In this document: positions 14,619 to 53,789 of the stretch, piece after piece
Numbering within the stretch: the stretch's first letter is position 1
Layout: each line of letters begins with the position of its first letter
NCBI GenBank assembly: GCA_032718475.1
Contig: JAUCBJ010008780.1
Span: forward strand, 19,270-83,269
From: Nemertoderma westbladi
Taxonomy: Eukaryota > Animalia > Xenacoelomorpha
Length of the DNA stretch: 64,000 nucleotides
Reading direction: 5' to 3'
Program-made: the position numbers and the translations under genes
Notes under the pieces: model-generated
What the model saw: the letters and a program-made list of their open reading frames with translations, nothing else
Database searches by the model: none
Told to the model about the DNA's origin: nothing

Positions 14619-14696
14619 CCGCTCCCAGAAAATGGGATTTAAGTCTATAAAATATACAAAATCACAGTTTCTAAAATATAAAAATACTCTAAACAG

Positions 14697-17768: not shown

Positions 17769-19387
17769 ATCTGCTATCTGAGTTTATTAATATCAATATG
17801 AGTTAATATTTTAGGCAAGCGGGCGTCGCTGCCTACTAGGCTTTGCCCCCGGACAGTGGGTTTCTCAGCGCCGATGTACCGTTGTCGCAGTGTTTACGCC
17901 AACATGTAGCAACAGCACGACAACGATAACCGGCACAAGTCCCACCACTGTCCGTCCCAAAGGCTTGAATCCACTTGAGGTTATCTCGGTAGAGTTAGGG
18001 CTACTTTACAATTGCGATTAGCTACTGTAAACACACTTTAGTAGTAACATTCACCTATAAACGCACAAATTCCATACAATCATTACTTACTGCACACATG
18101 CATGCCATTTGTCCGTTAGTCAGTGTCTTCCAGAATGTCACGTTATTACTGTGTATCCTTGGATACTAATAGTGCGCTATGTATACTCTTATGTTACGCA
18201 ATGGGGCAAGCTTTTTATTGTTCCTTTAACTTGCTTCTAATTCTAGCATGGGTGTTGCCATGGTGACATTATGGAAAACTAGCGGTAGAATTAGGGTAAT
18301 TCTCATGCATACAGATCTGGGATGTTATTTTAGTAATTCTTTAATTGTCAATATCCTCTTTATGCATGATTTTATAAATTTTATCGGCTATTGACTGTAT
18401 GTTGGAGATTCTCGCACTCTAGTACACTCAATATAAATCTCCGCTCCCATGATCTATTAATTACTGGAATTTTGGGAATGTTATAAATTGCACAAAATGA
18501 CAATTTATGAAATTCATTTGAATATGAATTTAAATTTATTCCCGTGAATTTTATTATTTGATGTTAAATTGACACAAATTTTATTCCAGAGCATATCTGG
18601 GGACTTAGGATCCTTAATTCTATAAAATAGTCCTTCTAAGAATATCGGTAAATACTGCGATATCTTAATTGACTAGAAATTTTAAAGGATCAGGATTTTA
18701 CAGATTTTAATAAATATTAAATTAATATTTAGGATGAGCACCGATTTATTCCAGAACTTGTCTGGGGACGTTAACCACTGATTCTAGAATTTGTCTTTCA
18801 AGTATATCGGTGGGTGCCACGATATCTTAATCGACTAGAATTACAGATGGTCAAAAAGTTTAACAGATTTATTTGCGATTTACGCTACTGTTAGAGGGAC
18901 ATCACGCTACTATATGTATTATTTGTTATAAGGTAGAAGAGCAATATCGCACGAAGCAATGTCAGTGTGAAGAGGCAAGTCGTTTCCAAGGTCTACCCAG
19001 AGCTTGGTTTAGCCGAGACACGAGGATCTGAACTTTGCATTCCCAATACTCTGCCTACCAATAATACTTGAATATAGTAGTGGCTTTATTGTACTTTAAG
19101 AAGTACGGACATTTCATCTTACTGTAGTCACGTATTTATAATATGATACGGACAGTAAGGGAAGAGAAAAATAATTATTTCTTGCCGTCGCACTAAATAT
19201 ATTGTAAGTAATTAAATACGTAATAAACACTAATATATTGCACTAATTTACTAAATATTCTAAAATAACATTCTACTAAATAAAATTAAAGAAAACGATT
19301 ATAATAAAATTACATAATAATACATACATAAATATAAAATAAAAACAAATATAAAATGATATAGTCACACGCCCACTCCACATGCTA

Positions 19388-22300
19388 TCACGTTATGGAG
19401 TCCCTAGATATTTGTCGGATTAGGGAAGTAGTCGTAGGAAGAGTATCTTGCCTTCCATAGTTTTCGGACAGTTTTCGGTCTCTTTCCAGTAAACATAAAC
19501 GACTAGCTGGGCGATTGAGTTGTTGTGTTACTTTCTCCGCTCCCTTGGCCTGTCTAATTTCTGCCGTGGTAAGATGAGGAGGCCATTCTTCTTCTTCTTT
19601 ACTTAAGGAGTCGGATCCACCTAACCAGCCTGGAGTATCTATCAGTTCTTGAGGAGTTGCTCCTCTGGAAGCGATGTCGGCTGGATTAATCGTCCCAAGG
19701 CAATGTCTCCATTGATCTACATTGGAGTTAATATCGTCATTATCTGAGGAGTATGGTGTTCCCTCAGTTGGATCGTCCACATCACTGCTCTCCACTTCCC
19801 ATTCCTTTACTTGGTATACCTGTTGTTGAGGTAATCTCTCTTTGAGAGTTCTACGGGAAGGGCCAGTGAAGTACCAACCTACTCTAGTTCTTACCGCATA
19901 AGTTTGTAATGGCTGTGGTTGAGCAGGCCGTTTCTCTAATGTTTCGAGCGCCTCGTGCGCGTTTTGGCCGATGAGTATTTGCACTCCAGGATAATCTGTC
20001 TGGAATCGAGGTATCTTAAGATGTTGGATGCTCTCATCTTCGTCCCAATTATAAAGGTCTGCTTGAGTAGTAGCAAAGTTCTTTATAGCCACCATTTTTA
20101 CTGACCTTATACCTTGTGTTCCTAACTTATCCTGGGGGGTGGACAACACACCTACATAGTAATCTGCCGTTAGGGTAGATTTCCAAACCTGCATAATTCC
20201 TGACATATTCAATTTAGTCCGGAACTTGGGTTGTCCAGCAAAGATATCTTCGGCTAGTTCTTGATCGATGAATGTTCCTGTGCTGCCGGAGTCAAGTAGG
20301 GCGTTCACTATGTAACTCTTGTTGAGACCATGAACTCGAACTTGCACTACAGGAAATTCTCTTATTCCTATGTTGGAAGTTGGAACTTTCCAAGATGGTT
20401 GTTTGTCAAAAGGAGTTGGAGTAAACTCGTCAGTGTCCTTTTCATCCGTAAGTGCTCGATACACTGTGGTATTTATTAGATAACAGGATTCGTTGGCATC
20501 GGAGAATTCGTCTGTATAGAATCCTTCCCACTCAGAACCTTGGTCAGTGTCGTTCACATCACTGAATTGGACATGTAGTTCGGGCTCACTTACCTGACTC
20601 GGGTTGTCTCGTTCGAACTCACTGTGTAACAAGATGTGATGTTTCGCGCCACACTTTGCACACTTTACGTCGGAGTAACAGGTTCGCCGTTGGTGTCCTG
20701 ATCTGAGGCAATTATAGCATAACCGCTTATTCCACAGGACTGTACGTCTGTCTACAGGTGATTTCTTTAGAAATTCAGCACACGCACTCAAACGGTGGGG
20801 CCCGTCGCACAGCGCACATTTTGGTTTGATGTTACTCACCTTAACTTGGTTAACGTTCTGCACTCTCGTTCTTTCTTCGGGCTTTCTTCCGTGAATTCTC
20901 TTAGGAGACGTAGGAGGAGTTGTTGTTACCTGTTCTCTCCTGTCACTGGTTCGAGACTTGTATTTACTTATGTCTTTATAGGTCTTGTTGTCATAGTAAG
21001 ATTTTGCTGTGTCTTTCCCGCTGTCCTCTTCTTGAGAAGCTTGGCTTTCGCCGTCGTCAGTATAACACACTGGTATTATCCTTCTCCTAGAAACGGGTTT
21101 CTCACTTACCTTATTTTCCGATGTTTTCTCTCTGGACTGCCTTATGAGTTGTAATTTTACTTCACTATCTAAGAAGGACATGAGATCAGCCATGGTAGGA
21201 CTTCGTCGTTGTTGTTCATTCATGTACAACACTTTCTTGTCCCAGCGCGTACATACTCCACCCTTTGGTAAAGTAGAGACTACGGCTCCAATGACCATGG
21301 AACTCTGATATTCATGCGACTTACCTAACCAGTCCAGTTGTCTACAGATCTCTTGAATTTCATCGGAAAACTCTATAATCCCGCTACTAAGGAAGTGTCG
21401 GGGGGCTACTAATTTTGCATACAAATACTTAGCTATGTTATCCTTGTTACCATACCTGATGTTTAGTGTATCCCAAACTTGTCTTAATCCATCTGGATGT
21501 CCAATAAACTTTAACGCCATTAACTTGGGAGGTCCTTCCAAGCACTTGATGAGGAATCTAAGTTTCTCTCCGTTAGATAGTACAGAGTTCTGTATGCTAT
21601 CTTTGTAATATTCGTTGAAAGGTAACCATTTCATCTCATCTCCATTGAATTTGACGATCTCTCCCACTTTGACCGCTTGGCGGGCTTCTGTTCTAGCCAT
21701 CTGACGCGTAAAGCTTTCTTGGGCCATCGTGTTATTTAATATCGAATTATCGGTATATAAATTTCTCGGATCATTATCAAGTCTATAGGGAATATCATTA
21801 ATAACAGGTCTATAATCACCCTTAATAGGGTTTGCTATAGGAGTTTCAACTTCACTAGCAGTGTAGATGCGTTTAGGCTCCACACCTTGCGCATGTAGTA
21901 CTTCAGACCTAACAGGTTGACACAAAGTTACAGGGGGTATTGGTATGCCCTTTTGTATATTGACTAATTTGTCGCGTTCTAGCGCGATACTTTGCTGCAC
22001 TTCTTGCAACTCTGCTCTACTTTCCCTCACTGTTCCCTTATGTTGGTGGACAGTCTCCTGCATCTGTCCCAGCAGGAGATTCATCCCACGCCGTCCCTCT
22101 TCCACCCACTCAACCGCCGAAGCGGGAGTCGCCAACATAGTAGCGGGCTGACGCGGGACGACGGGAGACAAATTTTTAATTTCTCTCTCTGCTATCTGGA
22201 CAGGGATATTCTCTTGGACTGTTCCACCGGGTACAGGCAGTGTAGTACTATGTAAAGGGAATTTTGAGTTAAGCTCTGGAAGTACAGGGGTCTCTAACAC

Positions 22301-24076
22301 AGAAGTGACTTTGGGAACGACAGGCCTAATTATCTCAGGCTCATCAACTATCGTAGAGAGTCTTTGGACCTTAATACTTTGGGCCGTAGGTTCTATACTA
22401 CTCAAGTCTGTGCTAGCTAGCTGTCTTCTAACAGCTGGGGGCAAATCAGGCAATTTGCGACGGTAAGATGTTTTTCTACGCCTACTTAGATGAGATCTAT
22501 TTCCTCCGCCTTCAGGATCGGTAGTGTCGCCTTCCTCCGAGGATGTGTATCCCTGGCGCTTGGGAGTAGATTTTCTCATCATCTGCATCTGATTAGCAGT
22601 AAACTGTTTATTTATACTGTCTTGCGTCTCTTGCAGATTTTCCAACTCTAGTTGGATAGTCTCCTCAGACGCTCTCCGTTCTGCTTCTGCCACTGTTGCC
22701 TTTCTTTCGGCTTCCGCCGCTTTTCTTTCTGCTTCTGCTTCTGCTGCTTTTCTTTCGGCTTCTGCTTCTGCCGCTTTTGCCTTTCTTTCGGCTTCTGCTT
22801 CTGCCGCTTTTGCCTTTCTTTCGGCTTCTGCTTCTGCTGCTTTTCTTTCGGCTTCTGCTTCTTTTCTTTCTGCTTCTGCTTCCGCCGCCGCTGCTGCTGC
22901 TACCTTTCTTCTCTCTATCAGTTCTTTCTTTACTTGTTCTTCTCGGACTCTAGTGAGGCGGAGTTTTTCATCACATTCAGCTTGGTTTGCAGCTAACATT
23001 TCGGCATCGATTGAGTCCAACACAAGCTTGGTTCCTTCACTATTAGGGGAAAGTCCAGACAGCCGTCTCCTCAACTCTTCGTCTCCTAGGAATCGCTGAT
23101 AGTCGGACAAATAAATGTCGATAGCGTCTCTAGTTCGCGGTTTCTCGGCGGTCTCTTCGCTTTCCGCTTGAGAAAGGGTGACATCAGTTTGTTCTTTACA
23201 GGTTGATCTCTCAGCCAGCTGGGATTTCCACTGGGCCGTTTCCTGTACTTTGAGATCTACCCGATGTAACCAAGTTTTGACAGCAACCTGCAGCGACGTG
23301 TCCTGTCTTCTTTTGGAAGTTTCCTCAAAGGCTGAGAGGATTAGTCGTATGCATAGGGTTCTTTCGCGTATTTGATATAGCAGCTCTTCCTGCTCTTGAG
23401 GTCCTTGAGGTTGTCGAAACAGTTGTTCTTCCAATCGATCCAAGGAGCCGAAGAATCCCTGCACATATCCTGCTGCCGACCTCTTCCAAACAGCTGGATC
23501 CATAGTATCTTTAGCCACTCCCATCCTGTGTATATCTTCCCAAGTAGCCTCGGACAGATCCAACGGGAGTCCGAGTCCGGGAAAGTTCCATTGTGATTCA
23601 ACAATAGACATCAATTCTTCCCTGGCGTATCCCGCATAATTATCTTGGGTCGCTCGCTTATTTCTCGCCCAGTCGGCTTGATGTTCCTCCACCGCAATAT
23701 ATATAGTAGTTAGCACTGCAGCAGGAAGGGTAAGAAGGGGGTCCGAGTATACTGTAGCAGCCATCTGCACTCCGCGTTCGGGGGTCAGCTCTACAGTATC
23801 CGAACTGCTGGAGCTATCAGGTCGCTGGGAAGTAGGTTCTTGACCAAGATGTTGCTGCGATAGGACAGCTGCCTCTTGGTTCCGTTTGACCTGTGCCCGA
23901 GTGCCTATGATGGACCTATGGTGGATTAGCCTAGGGTCTGATACTACTGGAGGGATGACCTTTTTTGCAGTAGGAGGTGAGCTGAACTCCTTTCTTATTC
24001 GCTCCACACTCCTATCTGAGTCACAGATAGTTGTATCGATCAGACTGTCTGACAGGTTTTGCTGAGTGTCAGACAT
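19388..24076 (-). CDS. gag: BEL/Pao Gag-protease polyprotein (1562 aa) with RT, most of RNase H and integrase deleted in frame
   Basis: Coiled-coil AEAERK repeats, DUF1759-like KFNGDEMKWLPF, three zinc knuckles (CALCDGPH..C, CYNC....H....C, CAKCGAKHH), protease LLDSGS, then DQWRHCLGTINPADIASRG fused to the pol C-terminus seen in element A. Confidence 0.93.
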   Translation of the reverse strand: MSDTQQNLSDSLIDTTICDSDRSVERIRKEFSSPPTAKKVIPPVVSDPRLIHHRSIIGTRAQVKRNQEAAVLSQQHLGQEPTSQRPDSSSSSDTVELTPERGVQMAATVYSDPLLTLPAAVLTTIYIAVEEHQADWARNKRATQDNYAGYAREELMSIVESQWNFPGLGLPLDLSEATWEDIHRMGVAKDTMDPAVWKRSAAGYVQGFFGSLDRLEEQLFRQPQGPQEQEELLYQIRERTLCIRLILSAFEETSKRRQDTSLQVAVKTWLHRVDLKVQETAQWKSQLAERSTCKEQTDVTLSQAESEETAEKPRTRDAIDIYLSDYQRFLGDEELRRRLSGLSPNSEGTKLVLDSIDAEMLAANQAECDEKLRLTRVREEQVKKELIERRKVAAAAAAEAEAERKEAEAERKAAEAEAERKAKAAEAEAERKAKAAEAEAERKAAEAEAERKAAEAERKATVAEAERRASEETIQLELENLQETQDSINKQFTANQMQMMRKSTPKRQGYTSSEEGDTTDPEGGGNRSHLSRRRKTSYRRKLPDLPPAVRRQLASTDLSSIEPTAQSIKVQRLSTIVDEPEIIRPVVPKVTSVLETPVLPELNSKFPLHSTTLPVPGGTVQENIPVQIAEREIKNLSPVVPRQPATMLATPASAVEWVEEGRRGMNLLLGQMQETVHQHKGTVRESRAELQEVQQSIALERDKLVNIQKGIPIPPVTLCQPVRSEVLHAQGVEPKRIYTASEVETPIANPIKGDYRPVINDIPYRLDNDPRNLYTDNSILNNTMAQESFTRQMARTEARQAVKVGEIVKFNGDEMKWLPFNEYYKDSIQNSVLSNGEKLRFLIKCLEGPPKLMALKFIGHPDGLRQVWDTLNIRYGNKDNIAKYLYAKLVAPRHFLSSGIIEFSDEIQEICRQLDWLGKSHEYQSSMVIGAVVSTLPKGGVCTRWDKKVLYMNEQQRRSPTMADLMSFLDSEVKLQLIRQSREKTSENKVSEKPVSRRRIIPVCYTDDGESQASQEEDSGKDTAKSYYDNKTYKDISKYKSRTSDRREQVTTTPPTSPKRIHGRKPEERTRVQNVNQVKVSNIKPKCALCDGPHRLSACAEFLKKSPVDRRTVLWNKRLCYNCLRSGHQRRTCYSDVKCAKCGAKHHILLHSEFERDNPSQVSEPELHVQFSDVNDTDQGSEWEGFYTDEFSDANESCYLINTTVYRALTDEKDTDEFTPTPFDKQPSWKVPTSNIGIREFPVVQVRVHGLNKSYIVNALLDSGSTGTFIDQELAEDIFAGQPKFRTKLNMSGIMQVWKSTLTADYYVGVLSTPQDKLGTQGIRSVKMVAIKNFATTQADLYNWDEDESIQHLKIPRFQTDYPGVQILIGQNAHEALETLEKRPAQPQPLQTYAVRTRVGWYFTGPSRRTLKERLPQQQVYQVKEWEVESSDVDDPTEGTPYSSDNDDINSNVDQWRHCLGTINPADIASRGATPQELIDTPGWLGGSDSLSKEEEEWPPHLTTAEIRQAKGAEKVTQQLNRPASRLCLLERDRKLSENYGRQDTLPTTTSLIRQISRDSIT

Positions 24077-25453
24077 GTTTAGCTATACAGTTGAATGTCT
24101 ACTACTATAGTTTCAGTTAAAGCAAGTCTGGTAATTCAGTATGACCGCAAGCCTAGCGATTTATTACCGGTACCGTTACTCAGTGTAACGTGATATATAT
24201 ACAATATATTAGAATACCGGTATGCTTATAATATATATAAGTATTATTACAGACTAGATTTGTCACAGAGTACCGGTATATAAGTTTAGCACAAATATAT
24301 ATAAATATATAATAGGCCTATCGTGAATACCGGTATACAGTTTACACTTATAGTACTGTAGTATATATAAGTATAATTATGAACTAGAATTTATTACAGA
24401 GTACCGGTATGATTTTAGCTCAAATTTATAGAAATAAATATAATAAGCCTATGGTAAGTACCGGTATGTCAATTATTTTTAGAATAATTGAATTCCTGAA
24501 TATTTTTGGGTTACTTAGCTACTTTAACTTACTTTATTACCGTTATTTAAGCAGTAGTCCAACTGATAGTGAGACCTAGTTGTTGTATGACAGGCCTACT
24601 ATTTATAAATCGTTTGAGTTGATTTATAATATTTATATACCCGTTTAAAATGGGTTTTGTCAATATTTGAAATAAATGTTATTATTTCTGGGGGAGTCAC
24701 TACACAGAAGCTGTGCGCTCTCAGTGAAGTGCTATTTATTTGACACTAAAACTGATAATTCTAATTTACCTAAGTTACTTAATACTACAAATTACTTACG
24801 ATACGGGTGAGATTAATTCTCTAATTAAAACACAACAAAATATTACGTACGAAATTTTGTAGGGTAATTTTAAAGGAAGTCTACAAACCAGCCTAACAAA
24901 GGGTTAGATTTCTGGTTATTACAACGGACAGGGTACTACGGTATTTGAATAATAAGTAGTAGTAAATATATTGCACTGTCTAGATAGGAAAATACCACCG
25001 CCTGACGACCTATAACCGTATCACTAAAGGTACTACGTTATGTATCACGGATTGTTCCTACCCAGAAGCTAATAGAGCTAACGAATGTGCCTATCAACCA
25101 CTTTACAACACAAATATACTGCCTACACTAATTACTTCGGAAAGCACTGTACACTAAACCCTAAATTAGGTACAAGTACCGGTATAACAAATAATCAGTA
25201 GTTAAATATACTTGAACAGTTAAAAGAACCACGGCATCTGCTGGAGTGACCAGGGCACAAAGTCACCAGTCTTGTCCTACGCCAAGCAGCCCGTGTAGTA
25301 CCGGGGTTAATTTAACTATAACAGTATGTATAACAAACACAATTACTGTAGGGATAAACTTGGGGACATGAATGTTGCGAATAATCGCATAAACTCTGAA
25401 CAATAAATATTACGCTACCCGCACAGAATACTCAAACGAAATACAAACCAAAC

Positions 25454-25920
25454 GCTGGCAGACTACTATCAAGCCTAAACAAACTACAGTATGTGCAGAT
25501 TCTGAGACTGTTAGTTAGTATGCGTTCTAACACGGTAGTACGACTTATTCTTTAAGAGGGGATTGACCTTACAGCATATGGCTGCCCCAACTTACTAACG
25601 GCACTTTATCAGACCAACTCTACACACGCAGCAATCCCTTCAGACCTAAGAATAGCTAGACAACAATCCAGCCTACAAAATATTTGAGTAATAACTATTA
25701 CGGTACCTGAACAGACCACACAAACAAACACAGGCTAAAACACTGGCAGACTACGATCAAGCCTAAATAAACTACAGAGTATATGCAGATTCTGAAACTG
25801 TTAGTTAGTATGCGTTCTAACACGGTAGTACGACTTATTCTTTAAGAGGGGATTGACCTTACAGCATATGGCTGCCCCAACTTACTAACGGCACTTTATC
25901 AGACAAACTCTACACACGCC
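25454..25920. repeat. ~180-bp direct duplication in the 5' leader of element B
   Basis: CTGGCAGACTAC...ACTCTACACACGC at ~25455-25630 and ~25743-25919. Confidence 0.85.
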
Positions 25921-26145
25921 GCAATCTCTCCAAACTCAACAACAGTCAGACAGCAACTCAGCCTACAGTTATCTGAACAATCTGAGCAGACTTACACGTC
26001 TTCAGCTCAATATTAACTTACTAGGAAATAAAACCGACAGAAATAAGTAAGCTCCAAAAGAAACAAGGGGTGTACAGTCCCTAATCTCTTAAACAGCCTA
26101 CCGGTATACAATAATCAAAATCGAATAATACTAAATGTACTTATA

Positions 26146-26275
26146 GAGCAGTACCGGTTAGGACAGTTGGGCCTACAGACCTACAGAAGTACCGGTTCTG
26201 GCAGTTGGACCTACGGACCTACAGCAGTACCGGTTCTGGCAGTTGGGCCTACTGACCTACAGAAGTACCGGTTCA
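26146..26275. repeat. ~37-bp tandem repeats containing GTACCGGT in the leader
   Basis: AGTACCGGTT..G.CAGTTGG.CCTAC.GACCTACAG units, 3-4 copies. Confidence 0.8.
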
Positions 26276-26330
26276 GGTTTACCGGTCACTACGGTATTTT
26301 GCAACCTTATTGCCTACTGCAATAAGATCG

Positions 26331-26341
26331 ATAACTGTTAC
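26331..26341 (-). promoter_or_regulatory. Non-canonical primer-binding site (GTAACAGTTAT), complementary to LTR-internal ATAACTGTTAC
   Basis: Abuts the 5' LTR end, no TGG; 11/11 inverted match to 27095-27105. Confidence 0.55.
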
Positions 26342-27552
26342 TGTTCGCGCTTTTGAAGACCTTTAGCAGTTTAACCTGCCAAAATTTATATGTCTTTTAG
26401 TTAATTAAAACACCTTTAGCATACGACAATATTTTATGCTAATAAACAAAACATTAGCCGAAGTCAGCCCATGCGCGATCATTCACCCGATGGATCTACA
26501 CCCGGGAGGCTGAATTCGGATGCTTAAATTATATTATTGCAGTGTAAGGTTGCAGTGTGAACCTACTGTATTATTCGATAGATCGTTAATAATTAATCTC
26601 TGACAGATATTATTGGCTTTCGGGAAATATTAACAGTTCCTTTAGGACGTGGCGCTCTATCTATTTAAACAGAACTAGGACTTATACTAAACGCAACGAT
26701 ACCGCTTATGATTAAAGTATAAGGCGTATTCTTTAGGAAATACTTTGTTACCAATCACAATCATGTACACTATTCTGCCGACCGTCAGTATATTTGACCA
26801 CACATAAAGAGAGCAGCAATTGACTCATGTAGGGTCTGCTAAATAACATTAGATTCAATACACACCACATTAATATAAATCGCAATTGTTATGTATAGCC
26901 TGTCTCTCTAACCTGTAGTGTATCAAGAAAATTGGGAATTTTGGGTGATTTATCCGTATTCTTCAAAGAGCAATAATTCATCAACAAATAGATACAATTA
27001 ACAACTGACGGTAAATAACAGTACAAACAATATGATTAGTGCAGTTAAATTAAATGATTGAGACTCGTTAAATTCGTTAGTTAAGTGAGTTAAGGTAACA
27101 GTTATACTTTCGGTAATTTAAGCAGTTTTACTAAAGTTCTTCCCAAAAGCCGGTGTTATGGCGAAAAATGGGAACACAACAACAGAATCATATAAAATCA
27201 TATGACTACTTGACTATACGAGGATACCAACTACCCTTATTCCCCGAGGCTCCCGTCCAACACAGAGGATGAGCATACAGATAGGAAATTCAGTTCAGTA
27301 GCTCTGGGATAGGTCAAAATCAACGCCCACTCAAATTCTATTGGCCGATACGGACAGCAAGGCTAAGGCAACCTCCCTAAGCTGGTTGGCCGCCGATCGA
27401 ACAGAACCCAGATACTCTCGTACAGCCCATCAGCCAATAAGCTGGTAGCTTGCACTATTTTACCTATAGCTCCCTTTTAGAGTATTCTAGCGACCGGGGG
27501 GGAACTGGCCAGCAAAGGCAAACTTATCAGTTATCCCACAAAAGCTTTTACA
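26342..27552 (-). repeat. 5' LTR of element B
   Basis: Direct repeat of 13408-14618. Confidence 0.97.
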
Positions 27553-30500
27553 CTAATTCTAATCCCAGCAGACAAGAACAAGGTAAAGCCCAATCTGGCG
27601 CACGAGTACGCATATCGGAGGCAACAATACCATAAAGGCCTCAGGTAAGAACACCCATTCCTACGATCCATAATCCCAATATTTTGCATTCGGTCGAAAG
27701 ATTTACAGAGGAAGCTTGGATTAGAGCTTCAACGCGTAAACCAATACGAGCGCCGAGAAACGACACTGACTCGAGTGAAGAAGAGGAAGATTTGAGGCGT
27801 CAGAAGTCCCAAAACTGGAAGGAAAGAAGGACTAACGCGGAACAAGTAAGTATGAACCCTCGGGAAGGGACCAGTCTTAACAATCCTGCAGAGTTGACCA
27901 ACTTGATGCCCCGAAATAAAGATACCCTCAGGGACATTGGTAAGTTTGCTGCCAGGCAGGGTTTGCCGGCACAACAACCCCAGAAGTTTATGGGCAACAA
28001 CAAACATTGGAGGACGTTTAAGATGTATGTCGACAAGCAGTTGACGAATAGTACCTTTACTCCCAATGAGAAATTCAATTACCTATTACAAATGCTCCAT
28101 AGAGAACCGAGAGCCATTGCCGATACCTTCGTCGGCAATGAAAGAGCATTCGAACTAGCAATGAAGACACTTAGCGACATTTATGGGAATAAAACCAAAA
28201 TGGCGCAGTCGATAGTTGAAGATTTGGGTAAGGGCGGAAAAATTATGACCCCTTTGGAGCTGTTGAACTTAGCCAACGCCATCTCGAACGCTTTGGATAT
28301 TTTAAAGACGGTGAATCTACCTCATCATGGTGATCATGCGGAAGTCTTGAAGAGTATAATAAGACGCCTAAAAATGCGTTGTAGACAAAAGTGGCAAAAA
28401 CTAGAAAATAAACTGGAGGGTCAGGACAATGTGTTGACTCTCAGACTTATTCATGATATGATAGCCACAGACGCGGTAGCAGAGATGAAGTCGAATTTTT
28501 CAGAAGAAAACATGAGAGAGACCAAGCCTGTTATCGGAAGGTCAATGGTGAGGTTTGATGAGGACAAATCAACTGTAACGTTTAACTCAATAGACAAATA
28601 CAATCCAAGTCCAAGTAGCTTCATCCTAGGGTCAGATAGACCCAGGACAAAGCAACAGGAGTTGCCGGACGGTTTTGTAGGTTGTCAATTCTGCCTACTA
28701 AAGGAGGTAAGATCAGATGACCATAAGTTAGAGAGCTGTAGACGCTTCAAGGAGCTGACTTCAGAACAGAGGAGGGTTCAAGTGCGGTCATTAGACACCT
28801 GTTGGGCATGCCTTGCCCCAGCTCATGTACGGCGCCAGTGCCCAAACAGTAAAGACGGACGTGTGGAGTGTGGCAGATTACATCACAAGCTGCTACATGC
28901 GGATTTCCATGCTCCAACAGACCGTTATTTACAGTGGAATCCTCAAAGGAAGGGAAGCTTAATACCCGCAACAATAAGGAAGAATACCTACGCCGGCATC
29001 CTAGACAATGGATATCAACCAGGTTCATCGGATGAGGACGGTGAAGCGAGCGCGAGGGAGGTAACTTGCGAGGGATTTACCATCGATAGCTTGTCAACCA
29101 GCGCGAGGACGTATTTATCATCGGCCACGTCAGAAATATTCAGCATGATACCGGTGAAACTTACTGGAGACAAAGGGTTGAAAAGAATATATGTAATGTT
29201 GGACACCTCTTCCACATTATCATATATAGACGAGGAAGTGGCGAGGGCTGTTTCCAGCTTCCAGGATGCTGAGGAGATAAAGATAAGTAAAAATCCATGC
29301 ACAGGGTAGGAGATGTCAAAGGACATAAGATTTCTGTCGAAATAGACTCCCTACTTCCGAGAGAAGAGCACACTCGCCAGGAAAGGAGAGCTTTGCCGCT
29401 GGATGGGTTTAAATGTTTGGCTATGAAGGGGTTCGGAAGGCAGTTAGGTAAGGTGCCACTAATGAGTCCCATAGCACAAGAGTATTTTGACGAGCTCAAA
29501 ATACCAAGACACCAGATAGGTTATAGAAATGTGTCTATGTTGATTAGAGAGGAACAGCTAATCACGCACCAAATATGGGAAATGAGACCAGTTGAGCCAT
29601 ATGTAAATGGGCCACACGCCCATAGGACCATACTAGGTTGGTATACACGCATACCCATTCCATACGAGTTTCCAGGTGGCGACAAGCTGAAGGATGGACA
29701 CGACGATTCGCAGTCTACATCACAGCCATCGTTAGTAGAACCACCAGATGTTGACGACTTTATGAGAGCCTGTATTGATCACTACAGCGACTTTAGCGAG
29801 TCGGAGGTGGAGTTGAGTCCTGATAATGTTAGATTATTGGAACCGCTCTAATACAACCGAACAGATAGTGAACCCGAGGACTACTGCTATCAGACCCATG
29901 GGTCTGGTTCAGTCTCCCACGCCACTTATTTGAGTAACGTCTTGACATATACCAATATAGTGGAAGGACAGGTGGCGAAATTTCGAGACCTCGACAATTT
30001 CCAATTCAACGAAGAGGAGTTGCAAAAGGAATTGATGCAGCAAGACCTCGAGACAGGAGCTAGAACCATCGAATGGTTGGACAAAGACGTGATGGAACCT
30101 GGTGGATATGACTTAACTATGTCTACAGACTAGTAAAGATCTCTGGAGATGATGGAGGACACAATATGCCTGTTACCAACAGCACACTTCGAGGTTGGAA
30201 TGTTGTGGCGTCGGCAACCCCCTAAATTGGAAAATAACTACAACCTAGCTTTGAAAAGATTAACCGGAGTAAGAGCGCAGTTGTTGAAGAATCAGGATAT
30301 TAGGGAGAAATATTGCGCCCAAATTAACAACTATCTAACCAAGAGATTTGCCAGGAAGGTAGAGAACCCCGACATTGAGACGGACCAGACTTATTATCTC
30401 CCGCACCATTATGTAACCCACCCTGATAAACCAAACAAGGTACGAGTAGTTAATGACTACGTAGCAGTCTATAAAGGTATGTCTTTAAACTCCGAACTAA

Positions 30501-35424: not shown

Positions 35425-36069
35425 AGTAGTAAGATGAACCCCTTTTCGGCGACAGTTTAGTCCCACTTCGCACCTTGGGTGTTAAGTAGGTCATTAATTA
35501 ATTAACCAATTAATTAATTGGTCGATTAAACAATTAATTAATTGTTTAATCAATCGATTTGTATCAAATAATGTTGCCAAAGGCAATTTAATTTGATACA
35601 AATCAATCAGATAGGGACGCGCGATGAATAAATTGTACTACAGCAAACGAAATATACAATACATAGGCACTGTCATACAATATACAATACATTTGTATTA
35701 TTTTTGCCATACAGTAGGTAAAGATAGAATTAAATATAAAGACACGAGCGGGGCCCAAAACATAAATTACCCACTCACGATAATAAAGTGGCCCAGTTTG
35801 GCCCCTGAGTCATCCCTCAATAATCTGTGGCTGTTGGGCTCTTATTAACCGTAGCATGACTAACCCAAACATCAATGCGTGAATGGGGCCTGCCTACAGA
35901 GCTTTAAATTATTCAAACCTACAGCTTCGTTATTACATCAATTCATCCAAGAAATTAGAATAAACATCTGCTCTTGCAATAGTTTGCATTCTTTCATATT
36001 GTATTGCGAAGCAGTTTACGCATGCATTAGCTCAACAACAAAGGCCATACCCAAACGCCATGTGTCAAG

Positions 36070-36138
36070 TCCATGTGAGGGTTGAACCCACGACCTATTG
36101 GAGATGTGAATTCAAAGCAACCACTACACCAAGGTGGA
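36070..36138 (-). ncRNA. tRNA-like Pol III unit (left arm copy)
   Basis: Inverted copy of 38544-38612. Confidence 0.55.
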
Positions 36139-36209
36139 ACAGTAACGTTTGAATTTGTTCGTTAACGTTCGAATTTGTAAGACTCTGATTTAAGACCTGA
36201 GGCACTCCC

Positions 36210-36440
36210 CACAACCACAGCCACATCCACAACCACAGCCACAGCCACAGCCACAGCCACAGCCACAGCCACAGCCACAGCCACAGCCACAGCCACAACC
36301 ACAGCCACAGCCACAACCACAACCACAGCCACAACCACAGCCACAGCCACAGCCACAGCCACAACCACAACCACAACCACAGCCACAACCACAGCCACAG
36401 CCTCAACCACAGCCACAACCACTGCCACAACCACAGCCTC
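36210..36440. repeat. (CACAGC/CACAAC)n hexamer array
   Basis: Direct observation. Confidence 0.97.
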
Positions 36441-36849
36441 ACCTTCACCCACTTTATTGTTAAATACGCCTGAGAAAAATTCAAGAAACATCTGGTTTAC
36501 AATAGATTATTCTTTTTTCACAACTCCATTCTAGCCTCCCTCTATAAAAGCCCCCATTCACCGCAACTGGTCATGTAAATGTTTACTGTTACTGTTTACT
36601 GTCTAAATGTTAAATGTAACTGTTTAACTGTTTTGATGTTCTTTGTTTAACCCCTATATTATTTATCCAAAGTTGAAAAAGAAAAATGAAATATAGTCGA
36701 CTATTTTCTTATTTTTAATATAGCAACATTGAAATATATATTTATAACATAACACATATACATATACATATAGCAGAGTAACATTTAAGATATAACACAT
36801 TGTAACACATAAGATATAACACATTGTAACATTTCATTCAATTGTCTAA

Positions 36850-37608
36850 TTATCTTCTGCACTGTCTCGCATTAACTGTACGACTGTTACTGTTCATAAT
36901 CCTAGGTAGATATACAACAGTTGCTGGAGATATAACTTTTCCATTCCCTACTCTGATTTTCTGTCCATTTTCATTGTCATTCTCCTCTGATGCTTCCTCA
37001 CTGTCATCGCTTCCCTCCTTTGATTCTTCCTCACTGTCATCGCTACTCTCCTCCGATTCATCCTCATCACTCTCATTTCCTTCATTATCACTCTCCTTAT
37101 GCGAATGTTTCTGCATTTCATTCAATTGTCTAATTATTTTCTGCAATTTATTTTTATTTCCTAATACATGTCTTAATATCTCCTCATTATCTGAGTCATT
37201 ATCCTCACCACTTTCATGTTCCTCGACTTCTTTCTCGCTCTCATTTTCTTCACCACCACTCTCATTTTCTTCTTTCTCTATCTCACTCTCCGTTTCATCA
37301 TTCTCACTTTCCTCTGATTTATTCTCTTCCTCACTCTCATCGTCCTTTTCACTATGTGGCTGTTTCTGTATATTCTTCAAAATATTCATGATTTTCTCGA
37401 ATTTATGTTTCATCATTTGTTTAATCTCTAGAAAATCACTCTCAACTCTCTTTTTGTTTTCTTCTTCACTAAAAATATCATCATTATTTTTTAATTTCTT
37501 TGGTAATGGTTCCATTACACCTTCCTTTCTATGTATACTCATATGACGGGATATACTGTCTCGTCTCATTTCTTTATTACAAACCAAACATCTTTCATAG
37601 CTAGGCAT
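36850..37608 (-). CDS. 252-aa protein with N-terminal C2H2-like finger and acidic low-complexity repeats
   Basis: CLVCNKEMRRDSISRHMSIH; intact ATG ORF downstream of a TATA box and Inr-like motif. Confidence 0.7.
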   Translation of the reverse strand: MPSYERCLVCNKEMRRDSISRHMSIHRKEGVMEPLPKKLKNNDDIFSEEENKKRVESDFLEIKQMMKHKFEKIMNILKNIQKQPHSEKDDESEEENKSEESENDETESEIEKEENESGGEENESEKEVEEHESGEDNDSDNEEILRHVLGNKNKLQKIIRQLNEMQKHSHKESDNEGNESDEDESEESSDDSEEESKEGSDDSEEASEENDNENGQKIRVGNGKVISPATVVYLPRIMNSNSRTVNARQCRR

Positions 37609-37719
37609 TATATAGCAATGTCAATTGATATTATGAATTTTCGCTGAATGATTTTACAAAATTTTAAATAAATAAAACTTTTATGAAAATAAATAAAACT
37701 TTTAAAAATAAAAATTAGA

Positions 37720-37755
37720 GAATGAATGAGAATGCGGTGAATGGGGGCTTTTATA
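37720..37755 (-). promoter_or_regulatory. TATA box (TATAAAAG) plus Inr-like TCATTC
   Basis: CTTTTATA at 37748-37755, Inr-like ~25-30 nt downstream on minus; mirrored TATA at 36543-36550 (+). Confidence 0.6.
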
Positions 37756-37859
37756 GAGGGAGGCTAGAATGGAGTTGTGAAAAAAGAATAATCTATTGTA
37801 AACCAGATGTTTCTTGAATTTTTCTCAGGCGTATTTAACAATAAAGTGGGTGAAGGTGA

Positions 37860-38472
37860 GGCTGTGGTTGTGGCTGTGGTTGTGGCTGTGGCTGTGGCTG
37901 TGGCTGTGGTTGTGGCTGTGGCTGTGGTTGTGGCTGTGGCTGTGGCTGTGGCTGTGGTTGTGGCTGTGGCTGTGGTTGTGGCTGTGGCTGTGGCTGTGGT
38001 TGTGGCTGTGGCTGTGGCTGTGGCTGTGGCTGTGGTTGTGGCTGTGGCTGTGGTTGTGGCTGTGGTTGTGGCTGTGGTTGTGGCTGTGGTTGTGGCTGTG
38101 GTTGTGGCTGTGGCTGTGGTTGTGGCTGTGGTTGTGGCTGTGGTTGTGGCTGTGGCTGTGGTTGTGGTTGTGGCTGTGGCTGTGGTTGTGGCTGTGGCTG
38201 TGGCTGTGGCTGTGGCTGTGGTTGTGGCTGTGGCTGTGGCTGTGGCTGTGGTTGTGGCTGTGGCTGTGGCTGTGGCTGTGGTTGTGGCTGTGGCTGTGGC
38301 TGTGGCTGTGGCTGTGGCTGTGGTTGTGGCTGTGGTTGTGGCTGTGGCTGTGGTTGTGGCTGTGGCTGTGGTTGTGGCTGTGGCTGTGGTTGTGGCTGTG
38401 GCTGTGGTTGTGGCTGTGGCTGTGGCTGTGGTTGTGGCTGTGGTTGTGGCTGTGGCTGTGGCTGTGGTTGTG
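37860..38472. repeat. (GCTGTG/GTTGTG)n hexamer array, ~100 units
   Basis: Direct observation; inverted counterpart of 36210-36440. Confidence 0.97.
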
Positions 38473-38543
38473 GGGAGTGCCTCAGGTCTTAAATCAGAGT
38501 CTTACAAATTCGAACGTTAACGAACAAATTCAAACGTTACTGT

Positions 38544-38612
38544 TCCACCTTGGTGTAGTGGTTGCTTTGAATTCACATCTCCAATAGGTCGTGGGTTCAA
38601 CCCTCACATGGA
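38544..38612 (+). ncRNA. tRNA-like Pol III unit / SINE head
   Basis: A box TGGTGTAGTGG (38551), B box GGTTCAACCC (38594), T-arm GTGGG/CTCAC, acceptor TCCA/TGGA; anticodon arm degenerate. Confidence 0.6.
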
Positions 38613-39072
38613 CTTGACACATGGTGTTTTGGGTAGGGCTTTGTTGTTGAGCTAATGCATGCGTGGACTGCTTCATAAAGTACAATATGAAAGAATGCAA
38701 ACTATTGCAAGAGCAGATGTTTATTCTAATTTCTTGGATGAATTGATGTAATAACGAAGCTATAGGTTTGAATAATTTAAACTCTATGGCAGGTCCCATT
38801 CACGCAGGCCCCATTCACGCATTGATGTTTGGGTTAGTCATGCTACAGTTAATAAGAGCCCGAACAGCCACAGATTATTGAGGGATGACTCGGGGCCAAA
38901 CTGGGGCCACTTTATTTTCGTGAAAGGGTATATTTATGTTTTGGGCCTCGATTGCGTCTTTATATTTCATTGTAGAGTATAACTCAACAAGGGGTTCCAT
39001 GGGATGCTTAATCCTTCACGCATGCCATACCAAAAACTATGGTTCTGTTTGAAATGTTAAGGTGGACCTTTC

Positions 39073-39106
39073 TATATAAATAAAACCATGTAAAGTTAGA
39101 TCATTA
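39073..39106 (+). promoter_or_regulatory. TATA box plus Inr-like site upstream of the GTSF1-like ORF
   Basis: TATATAAA at 39073-39080, TCATTA at 39101. Confidence 0.55.
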
Positions 39107-39188
39107 TCTCTAAAAATATTAAGTGAGGTTTTTAAAAGTTTTTTAAAAAGTATATCTCAATAAATTTTGTTTTTTGTCTTTTGTTACT

Positions 39189-39491
39189 ATGGAATATTTC
39201 ATATGTCCTTATGATGCCACACACAGAATTCATTCAGAAAAATATGTTACGCATTTAAGAAAATGTCGTAAGAACTTTTCGAATCAAAAAATGGTTCAGT
39301 GTCCTTTTCAACCCGCACACAGCTTTAGAGAAGCTGAAAAGGATCACCATTTGCGGTTTTGCGAATATAGGTCCAGGAACTCAATTTTTCATATATTAAA
39401 AGAACAGAAAAAAGAAGAGAAAAAAGAAGAGAAAGAAGAGAAGAAGGGAGAATGTTCAATGGCGTGGGGAGAAGAGGTGTGGGATTATTGA
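39189..39491 (+). CDS. GTSF1/Asterix-like tandem CHHC (U11-48K-type) zinc-finger protein, 100 aa
   Basis: CPYDATHRIHSEKYVTHLRKC-RKNF...CPFQPAHSFREAEKDHHLRFC = two CX5HX9HX3C fingers with the CPY/CPF signature of GTSF1; acidic Trp-containing tail WGEEVWDY. Confidence 0.88.
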   Translation: MEYFICPYDATHRIHSEKYVTHLRKCRKNFSNQKMVQCPFQPAHSFREAEKDHHLRFCEYRSRNSIFHILKEQKKEEKKEEKEEKKGECSMAWGEEVWDY

Positions 39492-40046
39492 TCACATGGT
39501 GTTTGGGTAGGGGTTTGTCTTTGAGTTAATATGCGCGTGGACTGCTTCATAAAGTATAACGCAAAAGAATACAAACTATTGCAAGAGTAGATGATTATTC
39601 TAATTTCTTGGATGAATTGATGTAATAACGAAGCTATGGATTCAAAGGGATTAGTCAAACTGGGGCCACTTTATTTTCGTGTGAGGGTATATTTATGTTT
39701 TGGGTCCCGATTCGTGTCTTTTTATTTAATTCTACCTTTACCTATTGTATGGCAAAAATAATACAAATGTATGTATATTGTATTGCACAGTCCTATTGTA
39801 TTGTATATTTCGTCTGTTGTAGTACAATTTATTCATCGCGCGTCCCTATCTGATTGATTTGTATCAAATTAAATTGCCTTTGGCAACATTATTTGATACA
39901 AATCGATTGATTAAACAATTAATTAATTGTTTAATCGACCAATTAATTAATTGATTAATTAATTAATGACCTACTTAACACCCAAGGTGCGAAGTAGGTC
40001 CAACTGTCGCCGAGAGTGGCATACTATTACTACTGCGCTTATTTCT

Positions 40047-45900: not shown

Positions 45901-47725
45901 AAATATTATTTCCTGCAATAAAAGTTTGATTAGGGTTGTCTATTACGGTACTATTAATATTAATTCCTTGTAACGTATTATTGTTATCCCCCCCCCCCCC
46001 CCCCCCCCCCCGCCCGTACGGTTACACCAGTCCTGGGCCTGTCGTCCGGTGCCTGTAAGTGGGGTGTTAACAAACGTTTCCGTTACTTCTGGCTCCTCGT
46101 AAACACTGCCCAAACCAGCCTCACTCTCCGATAATCCCAACTTCGCCAGTTCCAACTGGCGCTTTTGCTTCGCCTGGTATTGCATAAGCCCCCTTAGCCG
46201 GGTATGCATATCATCCCGCATATGCTTTCCCGCTCTCTCTCTCTCTCTGTCCTCTCTCAAACTCTGGTCGGCCAATTCTGCCTCTCTCGCAATCCTCTCA
46301 ACCCTCTTCGCCTCACGCTCTTTGCCCTCCCTTATTTCTCTCTCCGCGGTTCCCTCTTCCAGTTGCCTCTCCGACTCCCTTTGATCCAGCGCCACAAGGT
46401 CTAGTTGACACGCCAGAATGCTATCTCTAACACCCTTCTTGCTTTTGCGGAGGATGTAGCGGACTCATCGGTCGCGACGCACTCCCGTCGCCTCTCTGTC
46501 CTACTAACTTTCCCCCGCTTTCTGAGGTTCTTGCTCACCGACGACACCGAATCCTCGGGGTTAACCTTGGGTTCGCCATCGTGCGGGTCCACCCAACCCA
46601 CTAACTTAACTCCCCTAGCATCCACTAAGTAAGGCCCTACGTACACTACTTCAGGCTCCATTAGACCGGATCGCCACAATTCAAACAGTTCGGTAGCGAC
46701 CTCCCTCGCTCTCTCACTCGCCAGTTCTCCCTGTCCAAAACGGAATAAATAGTGAAAGTGTTTATTCGGCTCACCTAGCCTCTGATATAGTTTAGGCTGG
46801 TCTACCTTTCTCCCTTCTTTGGCCTCCTTAAGCAGTTTCTTGGTGGCGTTGTAGGCCCGTCGTAGCCCCTCACTCGTCCCGACGTCCTCTTTGCCGACTC
46901 CGCCTCCTCTCCTCGTCCAGCGTCGTACCGGCAGCCCCACTGTCGCCGTTCCGGTGGGCCATCCGCGCCCTCGGCCTGTGGCTGGCCAGCGACTTCGGTA
47001 CTCCGACCGCCGTTGTGCGTCGACTCGTCTCCCCCTTGTGGTTGATGGCCACCCTCAGAAAATACAAGTTAATTGTTACCAGTATGGCAGTGGCGGTCAT
47101 TAACTATGACCGGTCTGCACTGACTGAACTGAATAACACAACTGACCGGTAAAGCAGTAATGTAAGATAATATATGATTAATCACACATTAAATATTGGT
47201 TTACCTCCTACACTACTTTGGCCCTCTACCCAATGTATAGAAAGGAACTGTTTAATATAAGGTGTTCTATTATTCTATAATTGAGTCTATTTTCGTGTTA
47301 CGGAGCTATTTTTCGAAATTAAAAAAAAATTAACATTTTTTTTCGAAACGGTTTTTTTCCAAATCCTAGGGTTGAGCTCCGTTTTGTAGTTCGTCTTTCA
47401 GACACTAAAGTTGCAATAACTTTTGAGTGTGTGAATGGATTTTGCTCATATTATGTGCCTTACTTTCGATTATCTTTCAACGCATGTACAAATTTAAATT
47501 AAAATCAAATAAAAACTATTTAAACTAGAATATCTAAATGCTATGAAGCAAATAGACCCATGTACCGCGCACTTATCTTGCCTCAGTTTGCTTTATTTCT
47601 CTTTGCAGTTTACCCCCATGCGAAGAATACCAGGTTTTCACTAAAAACCAGGTTAGGCCTACATAAGAAGTGAATCAAACCAAAACAATAAACGAATTAG
47701 TATCTGTACAGGTCATAAGATGTGT

Positions 47726-47800
47726 TCCACCTTGGTGTAGTGGTTGCAATTGAATTCACATCTCCCGTTGGTCATGGGTTTGATCCGATCCTCACATGGG
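47726..47800 (+). ncRNA. Third copy of the tRNA-like unit (SINE-like)
   Basis: TTCCACCTTGGTGTAGTGGTTGC...GAATTCACATCTCC...CCTCACATGG matches 38544-38612. Confidence 0.55.
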
Positions 47801-50441: not shown

Positions 50442-51874
50442 CCTCACTATATCCAGTACATTACATTTCATTTGGTCGAGGCCATCAGACCAATCCATTT
50501 TCCCTACGTGTAAATTTCCTGTCTGATATGTGTATTGTATTGTATATCCTGCATACACATAGGAGCGGTATATTATATGTTGGAAAAATTTAAAATTTTG
50601 TTGGTATTTTGAAAAGTTAAAGATAGAAGGACTGTACCAATAAAAAAAAAAAAATAAATAAAATTAGTAAAATGTTATCAATATTTTAAAATTATAGCGC
50701 TCAAGAAAGCCGATCTCGCATGTACCCGGGCCAACAGTGCAACGACCTCCCGGTCAAATCCGAACGCCCAAGCGTACCAAAACACGCGTTACCCGGGGTC
50801 TGCTGAATAGTCATTCCTTTTTAAAAATGGGATTGCACAACACAAAATCTTTTCTCTGTTGAAAAATATCTCAACTAAATGTTTACGAATTTATTTTACC
50901 TGCTAATCCTGTTTTTTATCTTCTATTTGGCTAGGCCTAACCCGTATTGTCTCTTTATTTTATACTCGATCAAAACAAACTGACTTTCAATACTAGCCTG
51001 CAGCCAGTCGTCCAAAAAATTATTATCACTAAATTAAAATCCTTCCCTAAAATTTATAAGTCAGTCAATTTCACAGTGGGGCTTAACTTGGTTTTTGGCA
51101 AAGGTTGGACCCCGTTCATGAAAATAAGTTTTTTGAGCTTAGTTGGTCCCCTAATGTAAAAATTCACAAAAATTAAAATATTTCATGGGTGGCTTTTTAT
51201 ATTAAAACTATTTAAGTAATTATTTAATACTAATCATATTACTAAATTTCATCACTTACTCCCCCAAACATATTGACAGGTTTATTTTGCTCCATTGGTG
51301 TCACATTGTACAAAAAATAAAAAAATTTAAAATTTCATGGGTGGCTTTTAATATAAATGCTATTTAATTATTTATTTAATACTAAATATTATTACCTTTA
51401 ACAAAGGATGTTACCCCATTCCTGAAAACACGTTTTTTGGCTCTAATCATGTCTCGATGAATAAAATATAAAAAATGAGAAAGTTTCATGGGTGGCTTTT
51501 AATATAAATGCTATTTAATTATTTATTTAATACTAAATATTATTACCTTTAACTAAGGATGTTTGTTACCCCATCCCATACATGAAAAAAGTTTGTTTGG
51601 CTCCAAGCATGTCTTGGTGAATAAAATATAAAACATTAGAAAGTTTCATGGGTGGCTTTTAATATAAATGCTATTTAATTATTTATTTAATGCTAAATAT
51701 TATTACATTTAACAAAGGATGATTGGTACTCTTTCCCATACGTTAAAACTAGTTTTTTGGCTTCAAGCATGCCTTGATGAATAAAATATACAAAATTAGA
51801 AAGTTTCCTGGGTGGCGTTTAATAAAACAACTATTTTATTATTCAATTAATACTAAATATTATTACTTATATAT

Positions 51875-52173
51875 GTGTAATATTATGGGTTTGTTCAGAA
51901 GTGGAAAAAATGGGAGCGCGTCACCGGGGGTTGAACCAGCGCTATACGTACGTTTCGGCCTAACAGGCCTCATCAGTAGCGCTAACCAGCTCAGCCACTA
52001 GCCCCTGACACTCACAGTCCCACCTAATCCACTTCTATTGAACGGGCAGTCTTAAGTTGCATATATTCTATCTCTAACAGCGGACCTAACGGCCTCAAAT
52101 ATAGCGCTGGTTCAACCCCCGGTGACGCGCTTTCTCATTTTTTCCACTTCTGAACAAACCCATAATATTACAC
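51875..52173. mobile_element. Penelope-like / SINE-like insert with ~70-bp inverted arms
   Basis: 51875-51946 is inverted at 52100-52173; contains a hammerhead and A/B boxes. Confidence 0.65.
51938..51983 (-). ncRNA. Minimal type I hammerhead ribozyme
   Basis: AGCGCTA-CTGATGA-GGCCT-GTT-AGGCC-GAAA-CGTACG-TA-TAGCGCT: complete core, 7-bp stem I, 5-bp stem II, palindromic stem III. Confidence 0.9.
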
Positions 52174-53789
52174 CTTTAATTACAGTTGCAACAGCTCATC
52201 TCCAATTTATTTAATTACTTATATATATATATATATATATATAGTATATAAGCCCATTCTTTATACAATGAAGGACTAGCGTAGATCAGCAGTTGGAAGA
52301 TATGGACCAGTCCACAATCTTCATAAAAAATCCCATATTTTCAAACATTTTATCTATAATCTATGTATTTATTTACTTTTTTATTCATATAATTCCTCAA
52401 CTGGTGGTCAGCAACATTGTATCAATAATCATTGTGTCTTACCTACAACTGTACTGAGTAGTTGTAGGTAATAAGACACAATGTGTACTCTCTCTATATA
52501 ATTGTTTATTTATCTTACCAATCAAACCAACCGAACCAACCATATATTAGTAGAACATCAGTAGGTATAATCTTTCACATTATTCACGGATGGATGCACA
52601 CACCTCCTATACTACATTATAATATAAAATAACAGCTACATTAGTTCATGATTGTTCTTAGTCTTGGGTATAGATATACAGTATGCTTCAGTTTAAGGCA
52701 TATTTTTCATTCATTCATTTTTAAGTGGTTCTTAAGTTAAATATAAAATACATTTAAGAACATCGATCTTATTATAAATTTATAAAACATCATAAACTAT
52801 TTAATTTTATTTCTTACATAATCTTACACACTGCCTATAATGGTGCGCCATTATCTGATATACCTTAATGTATACATGTATATAGTCTAATGTTGTTAGT
52901 GGACTGAAATGTTTATTTCGTTCCTGAAAAATGCCACATCATTCTAAGATTGGGTTAATTTTCTGAACAAGCAACATTTTCTTGAAAAACATGGTCGAAG
53001 TATAAAGTTTTAGAAAGTCATCCAAGATACGCAAATTAGCTACTTCAAGCAGTTAAGGAATATAATTCGAAACATGTATGAACTATTTTTGGTTTATAAT
53101 GGAGTATACTGTATATCAAAATAATTACATATATTTAGTATTAATTGGATAAATAAATAGTTGTATTATTAAAAATTACCAATGAAACTTTCTAATTTTT
53201 TGTATTATAATCATCAAGATATGCTTGGAGCCAAAAAAACTTGTTTTCATGAATGGGATAGGGTACCAAACATCCTTTGTTAAAGGTAATAATATTTAGT
53301 ATTAAATAAATAATTAAATATAATTTATATTAAAAGCCACCCATGAAACTTTCTAATTTTTTATATTTTATTCATCGAGACATGATTAGAGCAAAATAAC
53401 TTGTTTTCATGAATGGGGTAACATCCTTTGTTAAAGGTAATAATATTTAGTATTAAATAAATAATTAAATAGCATTATATTAAAAGCCACCCATGAAATT
53501 TTAAATTTTTTTATTTTGTGTACAATGTGACACCAATGGAGCAAAATAAATCTGTCAATTTGTTTGGGGGAGTAAGTGATGAAATTTAGTAATATGATTA
53601 GTATTAAATAATTACTTAAATAGTATTAATTTAAAAAGCCACCCATGAAATATTTTAATTTTTGTCAATTTTTACATTAGGGGACCAACTAAGCTCAAAA
53701 AACTTATTTTCATGAACGGGGTCCAACCTTTGCCAAAAACCAAGTTAAGCCCCACTGTGATTTGTTCGATTCGTCGATATTGTTCCATG

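Follow-up and report, generated by a model that had tools for sequence, protein, structure and literature searches.

Proteins of the GTSF1/Asterix family (structures 6x46 and 9nhb/9nhc) are built on tandem CHHC zinc fingers, with a basic face on finger 1 and a pair of tryptophans beyond the fingers. In mouse GTSF1, binding to RNA depends on residues R26, R29, K36 and K39 and binding to PIWI on W98, W107 and W112, according to the available text of PMC9385479. The same text reports that mouse GTSF2 fails to activate MILI, indicating that GTSF paralogues may not activate a given PIWI protein. In silkworm, the short BmGtsf1L carries W99-D100 near its C-terminus, which binds Ago3 and a Tudor domain of Vreteno, and slightly stimulates Ago3 slicing (PMC10711660, available text).

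Maverick/Polinton elements carry accessory and host-derived cargo genes (available text of bioRxiv 10.1101/2022.07.12.499685 and PMC8097293), such as the WASP and KRMA cargo of nematodes. Their commonest end motif is (AGT)2//(ACT)2, as stated in the accessible part of PMC8097293, and their arms range from 46 to 1447 bp. Transposon products directed against silencing have been described in plants, namely the antisilencing factors VANC21 and VANC6, mir820 and the Athila6 tasiRNA. For animals, transposon counter-defence against piRNA silencing is presented as an open question in the available text of PMC6719617 and PMC6367137; the former, a 2019 review, states there that no transposon-encoded factor against piRNA has been described, and the latter proposes a host-derived mimic without giving an example. 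Likewise, no transposon- or virus-encoded GTSF1 was found in the literature searched, which comprised few subscription papers and neither supplements nor repeat databases, in agreement with an earlier note on this DNA that knew of no such mimic. In the available text of PMC11125864, PMC13269885 and PMC11512509, GTSF1 and Polinton/Maverick both occur, but separately from each other.

Here, we analysed a window, i.e., a whole stretch of 64,000 nucleotides, in which a GTSF1-family open reading frame (ORF) lies within an inverted-repeat element with Maverick-type ends. The encoded protein shares with GTSF1/Asterix the tandem CHHC fingers, the basic finger-1 face and a Trp pair at near-equal spacing, but it is only 100 aa long, has a Lys/Glu centre and is transposon-encoded. 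With BmGtsf1L it has in common its small size and a Trp-Asp motif near the C-terminus; BmGtsf1L itself is encoded by the host and activates weakly. The likeness is one of architecture and does not imply orthology. The element resembles Mavericks in its ends, in accessory genes near the arms and in an arm length that falls inside their range, whereas its cargo, unlike that of nematode Mavericks, is a silencing-pathway cofactor. Finally, the plant factors are also transposon accessory products, and a silencing target is predicted for the present one, but all of them come from plants and are narrow in effect.

The GTSF1-family ORF and its protein

The ORF at 39189-39491 on the forward strand is intronless and translates without a stop into 100 aa, comprising two CHHC fingers, a Lys/Glu-rich linker and, near the C-terminus, W93 and W98-D99. 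In a motif scan, both fingers (C6/H12/H22/C26 and C38/H44/H54/C58) fit exactly the pattern CPx4Hx9Hx3C taken from PMC9539491. A profile search with Pfam zf-U11-48K matched the protein in two stretches (E 3.3e-10), and the protein also matched mouse GTSF1 (PDB 6x46; E 2.6e-11) and the GTSF1 chain of 9nhb (E 2.9e-8). In the Atlas, 29 of 30 matches belong to this same family. A model of residues 1-74 based on a 50-sequence alignment reached a pLDDT of 82, and its top two PDB matches were 6x46 (E 2.2e-4) and a SIWI-GTSF1-Maelstrom chain; a single-sequence model, with a pLDDT of 44, was set aside. When the surrounding cassette was shuffled 2000 times, an ATG-initiated ORF of at least 100 aa arose in 8 cases. 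The ORF is a GTSF1-family gene. This confirms, by translation, Pfam and structure matches, the two-fingered GTSF1-family protein claimed in the earlier note, and the charged linker and acidic Trp tail it had seen are indeed a Lys/Glu linker and a Trp-Asp motif at the usual family distance.

The same note had described the ORF as open among decayed neighbours. The first part holds, but several neighbouring transposon ORFs of 400-1562 aa are open as well. Direct repeats of 1.2 kb at 13408-14619 and 26342-27553 (99.7% identical) enclose a minus-strand 1562-aa ORF with DUF1759, together with ORFs at 14697-16472 and 17139-17768 of no clear family; we take 13408-27553 to be a young BEL/Pao-type LTR element with extra ORFs. 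A second inverted-repeat element at 51072-53759, whose ends read CACAGTG and which has a 4-bp duplication, ATTT, would fit Chapaev elements, and the ORF at 60220-60753 resembles a Chapaev N-terminal zinc domain, without Pfam support.

A HMMER search of 1.84 billion representatives gave 477 matches. The best 150 are 30-48% identical to the 100-aa protein, except for one with 57% identity over a single finger only, so that none of these 150 exceeds 48% across both fingers and no near relative emerged. The named proteins among 20 homologues checked were animal GTSF1-like or uncharacterised animal proteins, and no viral or transposon name occurred in the best 120 of 430 profile matches. Single-protein word-index searches found no homologue, and neither ORF of the element was present in a protein collection searched for exact sequences. 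No relative was found in viral contigs, scanned with the ORF and three alignments, or in metagenome contigs, scanned with the ORF; these scans require short exact words and therefore do not prove absence. A BFVD fold search of predicted viral structures returned 0 matches at E ≤0.001.

The positions aligned to mouse R26/R29/K36/K39 are H15/K18/K25/K28. Three of the four are basic, which is the commonest state among tandem-finger homologues (81 of 119). W93 and W98 lie at +35 and +40 from the last Cys, compared to +36 and +41 in three mammalian GTSF1 sequences. An acidic Trp motif is present in 80 of the 119 homologues at a median of +42 (quartiles 37-45), and the Trp-Asp of the ORF is at +40. 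Both binding surfaces, i.e., the predicted RNA face (K18/K25/K28) and the Trp pair, are kept.

The protein ends two residues past the Trp, whereas the homologues run on for a median of 150 residues (n = 80), although 5 of these 80 also end within 5 residues. Moreover, the segment from the fingers to the Trp consists of 49% Lys+Glu against a homologue median of 16%, with 0 of 79 homologues as rich, and contains no proline, as in 2 of the 79. The central region is thus not an ordinary one, a Lys/Glu repeat standing in place of the usual sequence; as this region is variable in the family, its state bears more on function than on membership. Finger 1 is ordinary, while in a set of 120 only five have a finger 2 more divergent than this one, which also lacks an Asn found in 84% of homologues. 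The altered centre and the diverged finger 2 would speak for an altered function.

In a quick tree of the fingers (59 columns), 70 of 116 inner branches were unsupported and the protein was not placed; long-branch attraction probably explains why it grouped with P0018, and this pairing was rejected. Other short GTSF-like proteins ending at the Trp motif were noted (P0047, P0131, P0157, P0025, P0094 and P0018), and an alignment holding three of these six gave no match against viral contigs.

These features allow a reading in which the protein simply works as a cofactor. As an activator of the Gtsf1L type, it would enhance or redirect slicing by PIWI, e.g., against competing transposons or to a host benefit that helps the element persist. 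The predicted RNA-binding residues and the Trp-Asp motif retained at family spacing are consistent with this, as are the homologues that likewise stop close to the Trp and the architecture of silkworm Gtsf1L, a slight Ago3 stimulator in the available text of PMC10711660. Given that three basic positions of four is the commonest state and that a short, Trp-ended, activating host paralogue exists, such activity is conceivable. It should be noted that, for the same reason, shortness is no mark of a decoy: the earlier note had suggested that a "minimal" GTSF1 could act as one, but small size does not imply this, since BmGtsf1L is short and Trp-ended too, yet stimulates Ago3. Against a working cofactor stand a central region without parallel among the 79 homologues measured, the Asn missing from finger 2 and the little that an element should gain from strengthening its own silencer. 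Overall, we consider it unlikely.

An inverted-repeat element with Maverick-type ends

The ORF lies within the right arm of an inverted-repeat element of 4.6 kb at 35425-40034 that begins with AGTAGT and ends with ACTACT, as the earlier note had reported. The left arm (35425-36565, forward strand) measures ~1.14 kb and contains a 6-bp tandem array at 36209-36438. The right arm, on the reverse strand, is split into an inner part (37733-38974) and an outer part (39488-40034). The outer part repeats the segments 38614-38763 and 38897-38974, with 18 other bases lying between the two, and closes with the terminal 300 bp. By segment, the arms are 88-100% identical: two inner right-arm segments (126 and 140 bp) match the left arm at 100% and the outer ones at 88-96%, the identical non-array segments lying within 36069-36565 versus 37733-38615. 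This difference between inner and outer segments suggests that the element is a recombinant of two family copies or was recently converted.

The ends correspond to the Maverick/Polinton motif, for which (AGT)2//(ACT)2 or (AG)3//(CT)3 was looked for, and long terminal inverted repeats are present. None of the core genes that Mavericks carry within 12-25 kb (pPolB, integrase, ATPase, protease and capsid genes) was seen in the ORF lists or Pfam results for the 4.6-kb element, and no perfect 6-bp target duplication was found at its ends; with the ends shifted out by one base, 4 of 5 positions match, which is at chance level. A recombinant of two family copies would also account for the absent duplication. 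On account of its size, the lack of a core gene and the lack of a perfect duplication, we describe the element as Maverick-ended without assigning it to the group. Its arm pattern was absent from viral and metagenome contigs in short-exact-word scans.

Apart from repeat-derived or short frames, the element contains one other ORF, of 252 aa (36850-37608, reverse strand), with an N-terminal C2H2-like motif recognised by eye and an acidic low-complexity region. No family was found for it: Pfam gave a sub-cutoff compositional match only, the Atlas matches were all <0.9, and a short-exact-word scan of viral contigs gave no match. By eye, the N-terminal Cys-x2-Cys zinc motif of an ORF at 12790-13188, around which no arms were found, resembles that of the 252-aa ORF.

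A repeat head that resembles a tRNA, and in which A- and B-box-like motifs can be recognised by eye, also lies in both arms (36071-36141 and 38542-38611), with a further match at 47723-47799. This head is the deepest stretch of the region aligned below; neither ARAGORN nor Rfam called an RNA gene there, and it is likely a SINE fragment.

The GTSF1-family ORF and its promoter-like region form a 513-bp cassette (38975-39487, forward strand) that occurs once in the window and sits between duplicated arm segments, with the stop codon of the ORF coinciding with the beginning of the repeated arm segment. In a motif scan, a core promoter was predicted at 39073-39106 on the forward strand, with a TATA box at 39073 followed after 28-30 nt by an Inr-type TCATT; the ORF starts at the first ATG beyond it. 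The "own TATA/Inr" of the earlier note is therefore present before the ORF start, but taken by itself this pair of motifs hardly exceeds chance (8 matches at 6 places in the window, against a mean of 3.4 and a maximum of 11 after shuffling). The 252-aa ORF has a site of the same spacing (TATA at 37755, Inr-type 28 nt on).

This arrangement raises the question of a mere passenger, i.e., a host GTSF gene or processed copy that became trapped in a duplicated arm and, though useless, multiplied along with a high-copy non-autonomous element. The duplicated arm segments on either side and the stop codon at the arm junction fit such an origin, and decay could account for the low-complexity linker and the diverged finger 2. 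On the other hand, the promoter-like spacing resembles that of the 252-aa ORF, and no poly(A) tract was seen 3' of the stop in the window sequence.

Variants in public sequencing runs

To follow the cassette beyond the window, contigs of 4 out of 8 listed public runs were aligned to 38480-39410, the ORF being covered over codons 1-74. Of the cassette words, 0.55-0.93 are present in three DNA runs, which come from two samples of a single organism; one of these runs may be the source of the window. Two runs from different samples, X1 and X2, both yielded ORF pieces identical to the window together with divergent ones. Among the pieces listed (24 of 2069), at least 8 are 4-20% divergent and free of gaps. 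Run X7, of the same species label, showed low-depth coverage of the arms and none of the cassette. A marine metagenome RNA run (X4) gave 0 contigs on 38480-39410, and the two marine RNA runs share just 0.04 of the words.

Contigs of X1 and X2 cover the aligned portion of the cassette, and the joint with the arm downstream of it is likewise present in both, at depths like those of the window-identical ORF contigs (352 vs. 269-355 in X1, 140 vs. 192 in X2). The structure is therefore no assembly error. In addition, two X2 contigs show a loose end resembling the last bases of the ORF directly before the same arm position; these loose ends hint that a divergent copy may share the ORF/arm junction, with the proviso that 0.8% of 18263 window 25-mers score equally well.

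The earlier note had stated that its case would fall if the ORF were the only host GTSF1 locus or an isolated retrocopy. Both are unlikely given the identical and 4-20% divergent variants in two samples, and the missing poly(A) tract past the stop also argues against the latter. As for a multi-copy, element-linked status, several variants do occur in X1 and X2, while the element link of the divergent copies is merely hinted at. Some divergent variants could come from pooled individuals or host paralogues.

The variants might even be intronless host GTSF paralogues throughout, with window-type copies alone tangled in the element. Several GTSF paralogues often coexist in one host, as with the three of mouse and the four of Drosophila, which makes such a family plausible. 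A low-depth contig of 298 nt in X2 aligns with the ORF over just 95 nt (39256-39350), at 80% identity, while its sequence on either side does not align; it may be an exon of the host parent gene or a distant copy. However, the window is almost all transposon sequence and the loose ends hint at a divergent copy with the same junction, so that we regard a host gene family as improbable.

All of the 11 indels listed lie outside codons 1-74, with 9 in the arm and 2 upstream of the ATG. Among the substitutions listed (40 of 93, ranked by support), 13 fall in the ORF. Within codons 1-74, 6 of these 13 are synonymous against 18-25% expected (P 0.016-0.083), giving a crude dN/dS of 0.25-0.39; none creates a stop, and a zinc-ligand codon is touched only by one synonymous change. 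The dN/dS comparison proposed in the earlier note thus points to constraint, but with 13 listed sites over codons 1-74 the synonymous excess would be a weak selection signal, since the listing favours well-supported changes and the sites cannot be counted as independent.

These data bear on the passenger reading from both sides. The summed depth over the ORF is just ~1/17-1/20 of the arm depth, and as read depth here is no copy number, this says only that the arms are abundant and that a minority carry the cassette, as would be the case for a passenger. The synonymous excess is borderline, and the apparent constraint could be inherited or due to chance. Nevertheless, variants up to 14-20% apart remain gap-free, without a listed indel or ligand change, and we judge a useless passenger to be rather unlikely. 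The ORF is real and probably selected transposon cargo, and divergent, apparently constrained variants in two samples make the case stronger than in the earlier note.

Possible action on the piRNA pathway

We hypothesize that the GTSF1-family cargo likely acts on the host piRNA defence, possibly as a competitor. In the form that we favour, the cargo is selected and predicted to dock on target-engaged PIWI-piRNA, where it would compete with host GTSF1; we hold this tentatively, with less than even confidence. That the protein is a piRNA antagonist is a possibility to which we give slightly less credence. The full scenario, capture of GTSF1 by a Maverick family and its conversion into a PIWI decoy whose finger 1 and Trp-Asp hold piRISC while the centre fails to activate, is more doubtful still.

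In this scenario, a host gene would have been captured into the Maverick accessory region and would have spread with the element family, kept open by selection. It would be transcribed from its own TATA/Inr site. The protein would contact RNA through finger 1 and PIWI, or a Tudor scaffold, through the Trp-Asp motif. Anchored at these two points, it may hold target-engaged piRISC with weak or no activation, since a Lys/Glu repeat here takes the place of the centre that wraps around PIWI and determines the choice of partner in other GTSFs. It should be noted that a broad block of piRNA silencing would be costly to a germline transposon, as argued in the available text of PMC6719617, which weighs against a decoy. 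The retained residues, which functioning cofactors have as well, also speak against it.

What is new here is the occurrence, in two samples, of identical and divergent variants of a transposon-borne GTSF1-family ORF. If the gene is a passenger, this would be ordinary gene capture. If it is an activator, a mobile element would, unusually, carry a core part of the host silencing machinery. If it is a decoy, the transposon would encode a suppressor of piRNA silencing, of the mimic kind that has been proposed but not found in the literature searched. The transposon-borne, multi-variant GTSF1-family gene is thus a concrete candidate for piRNA counter-defence.
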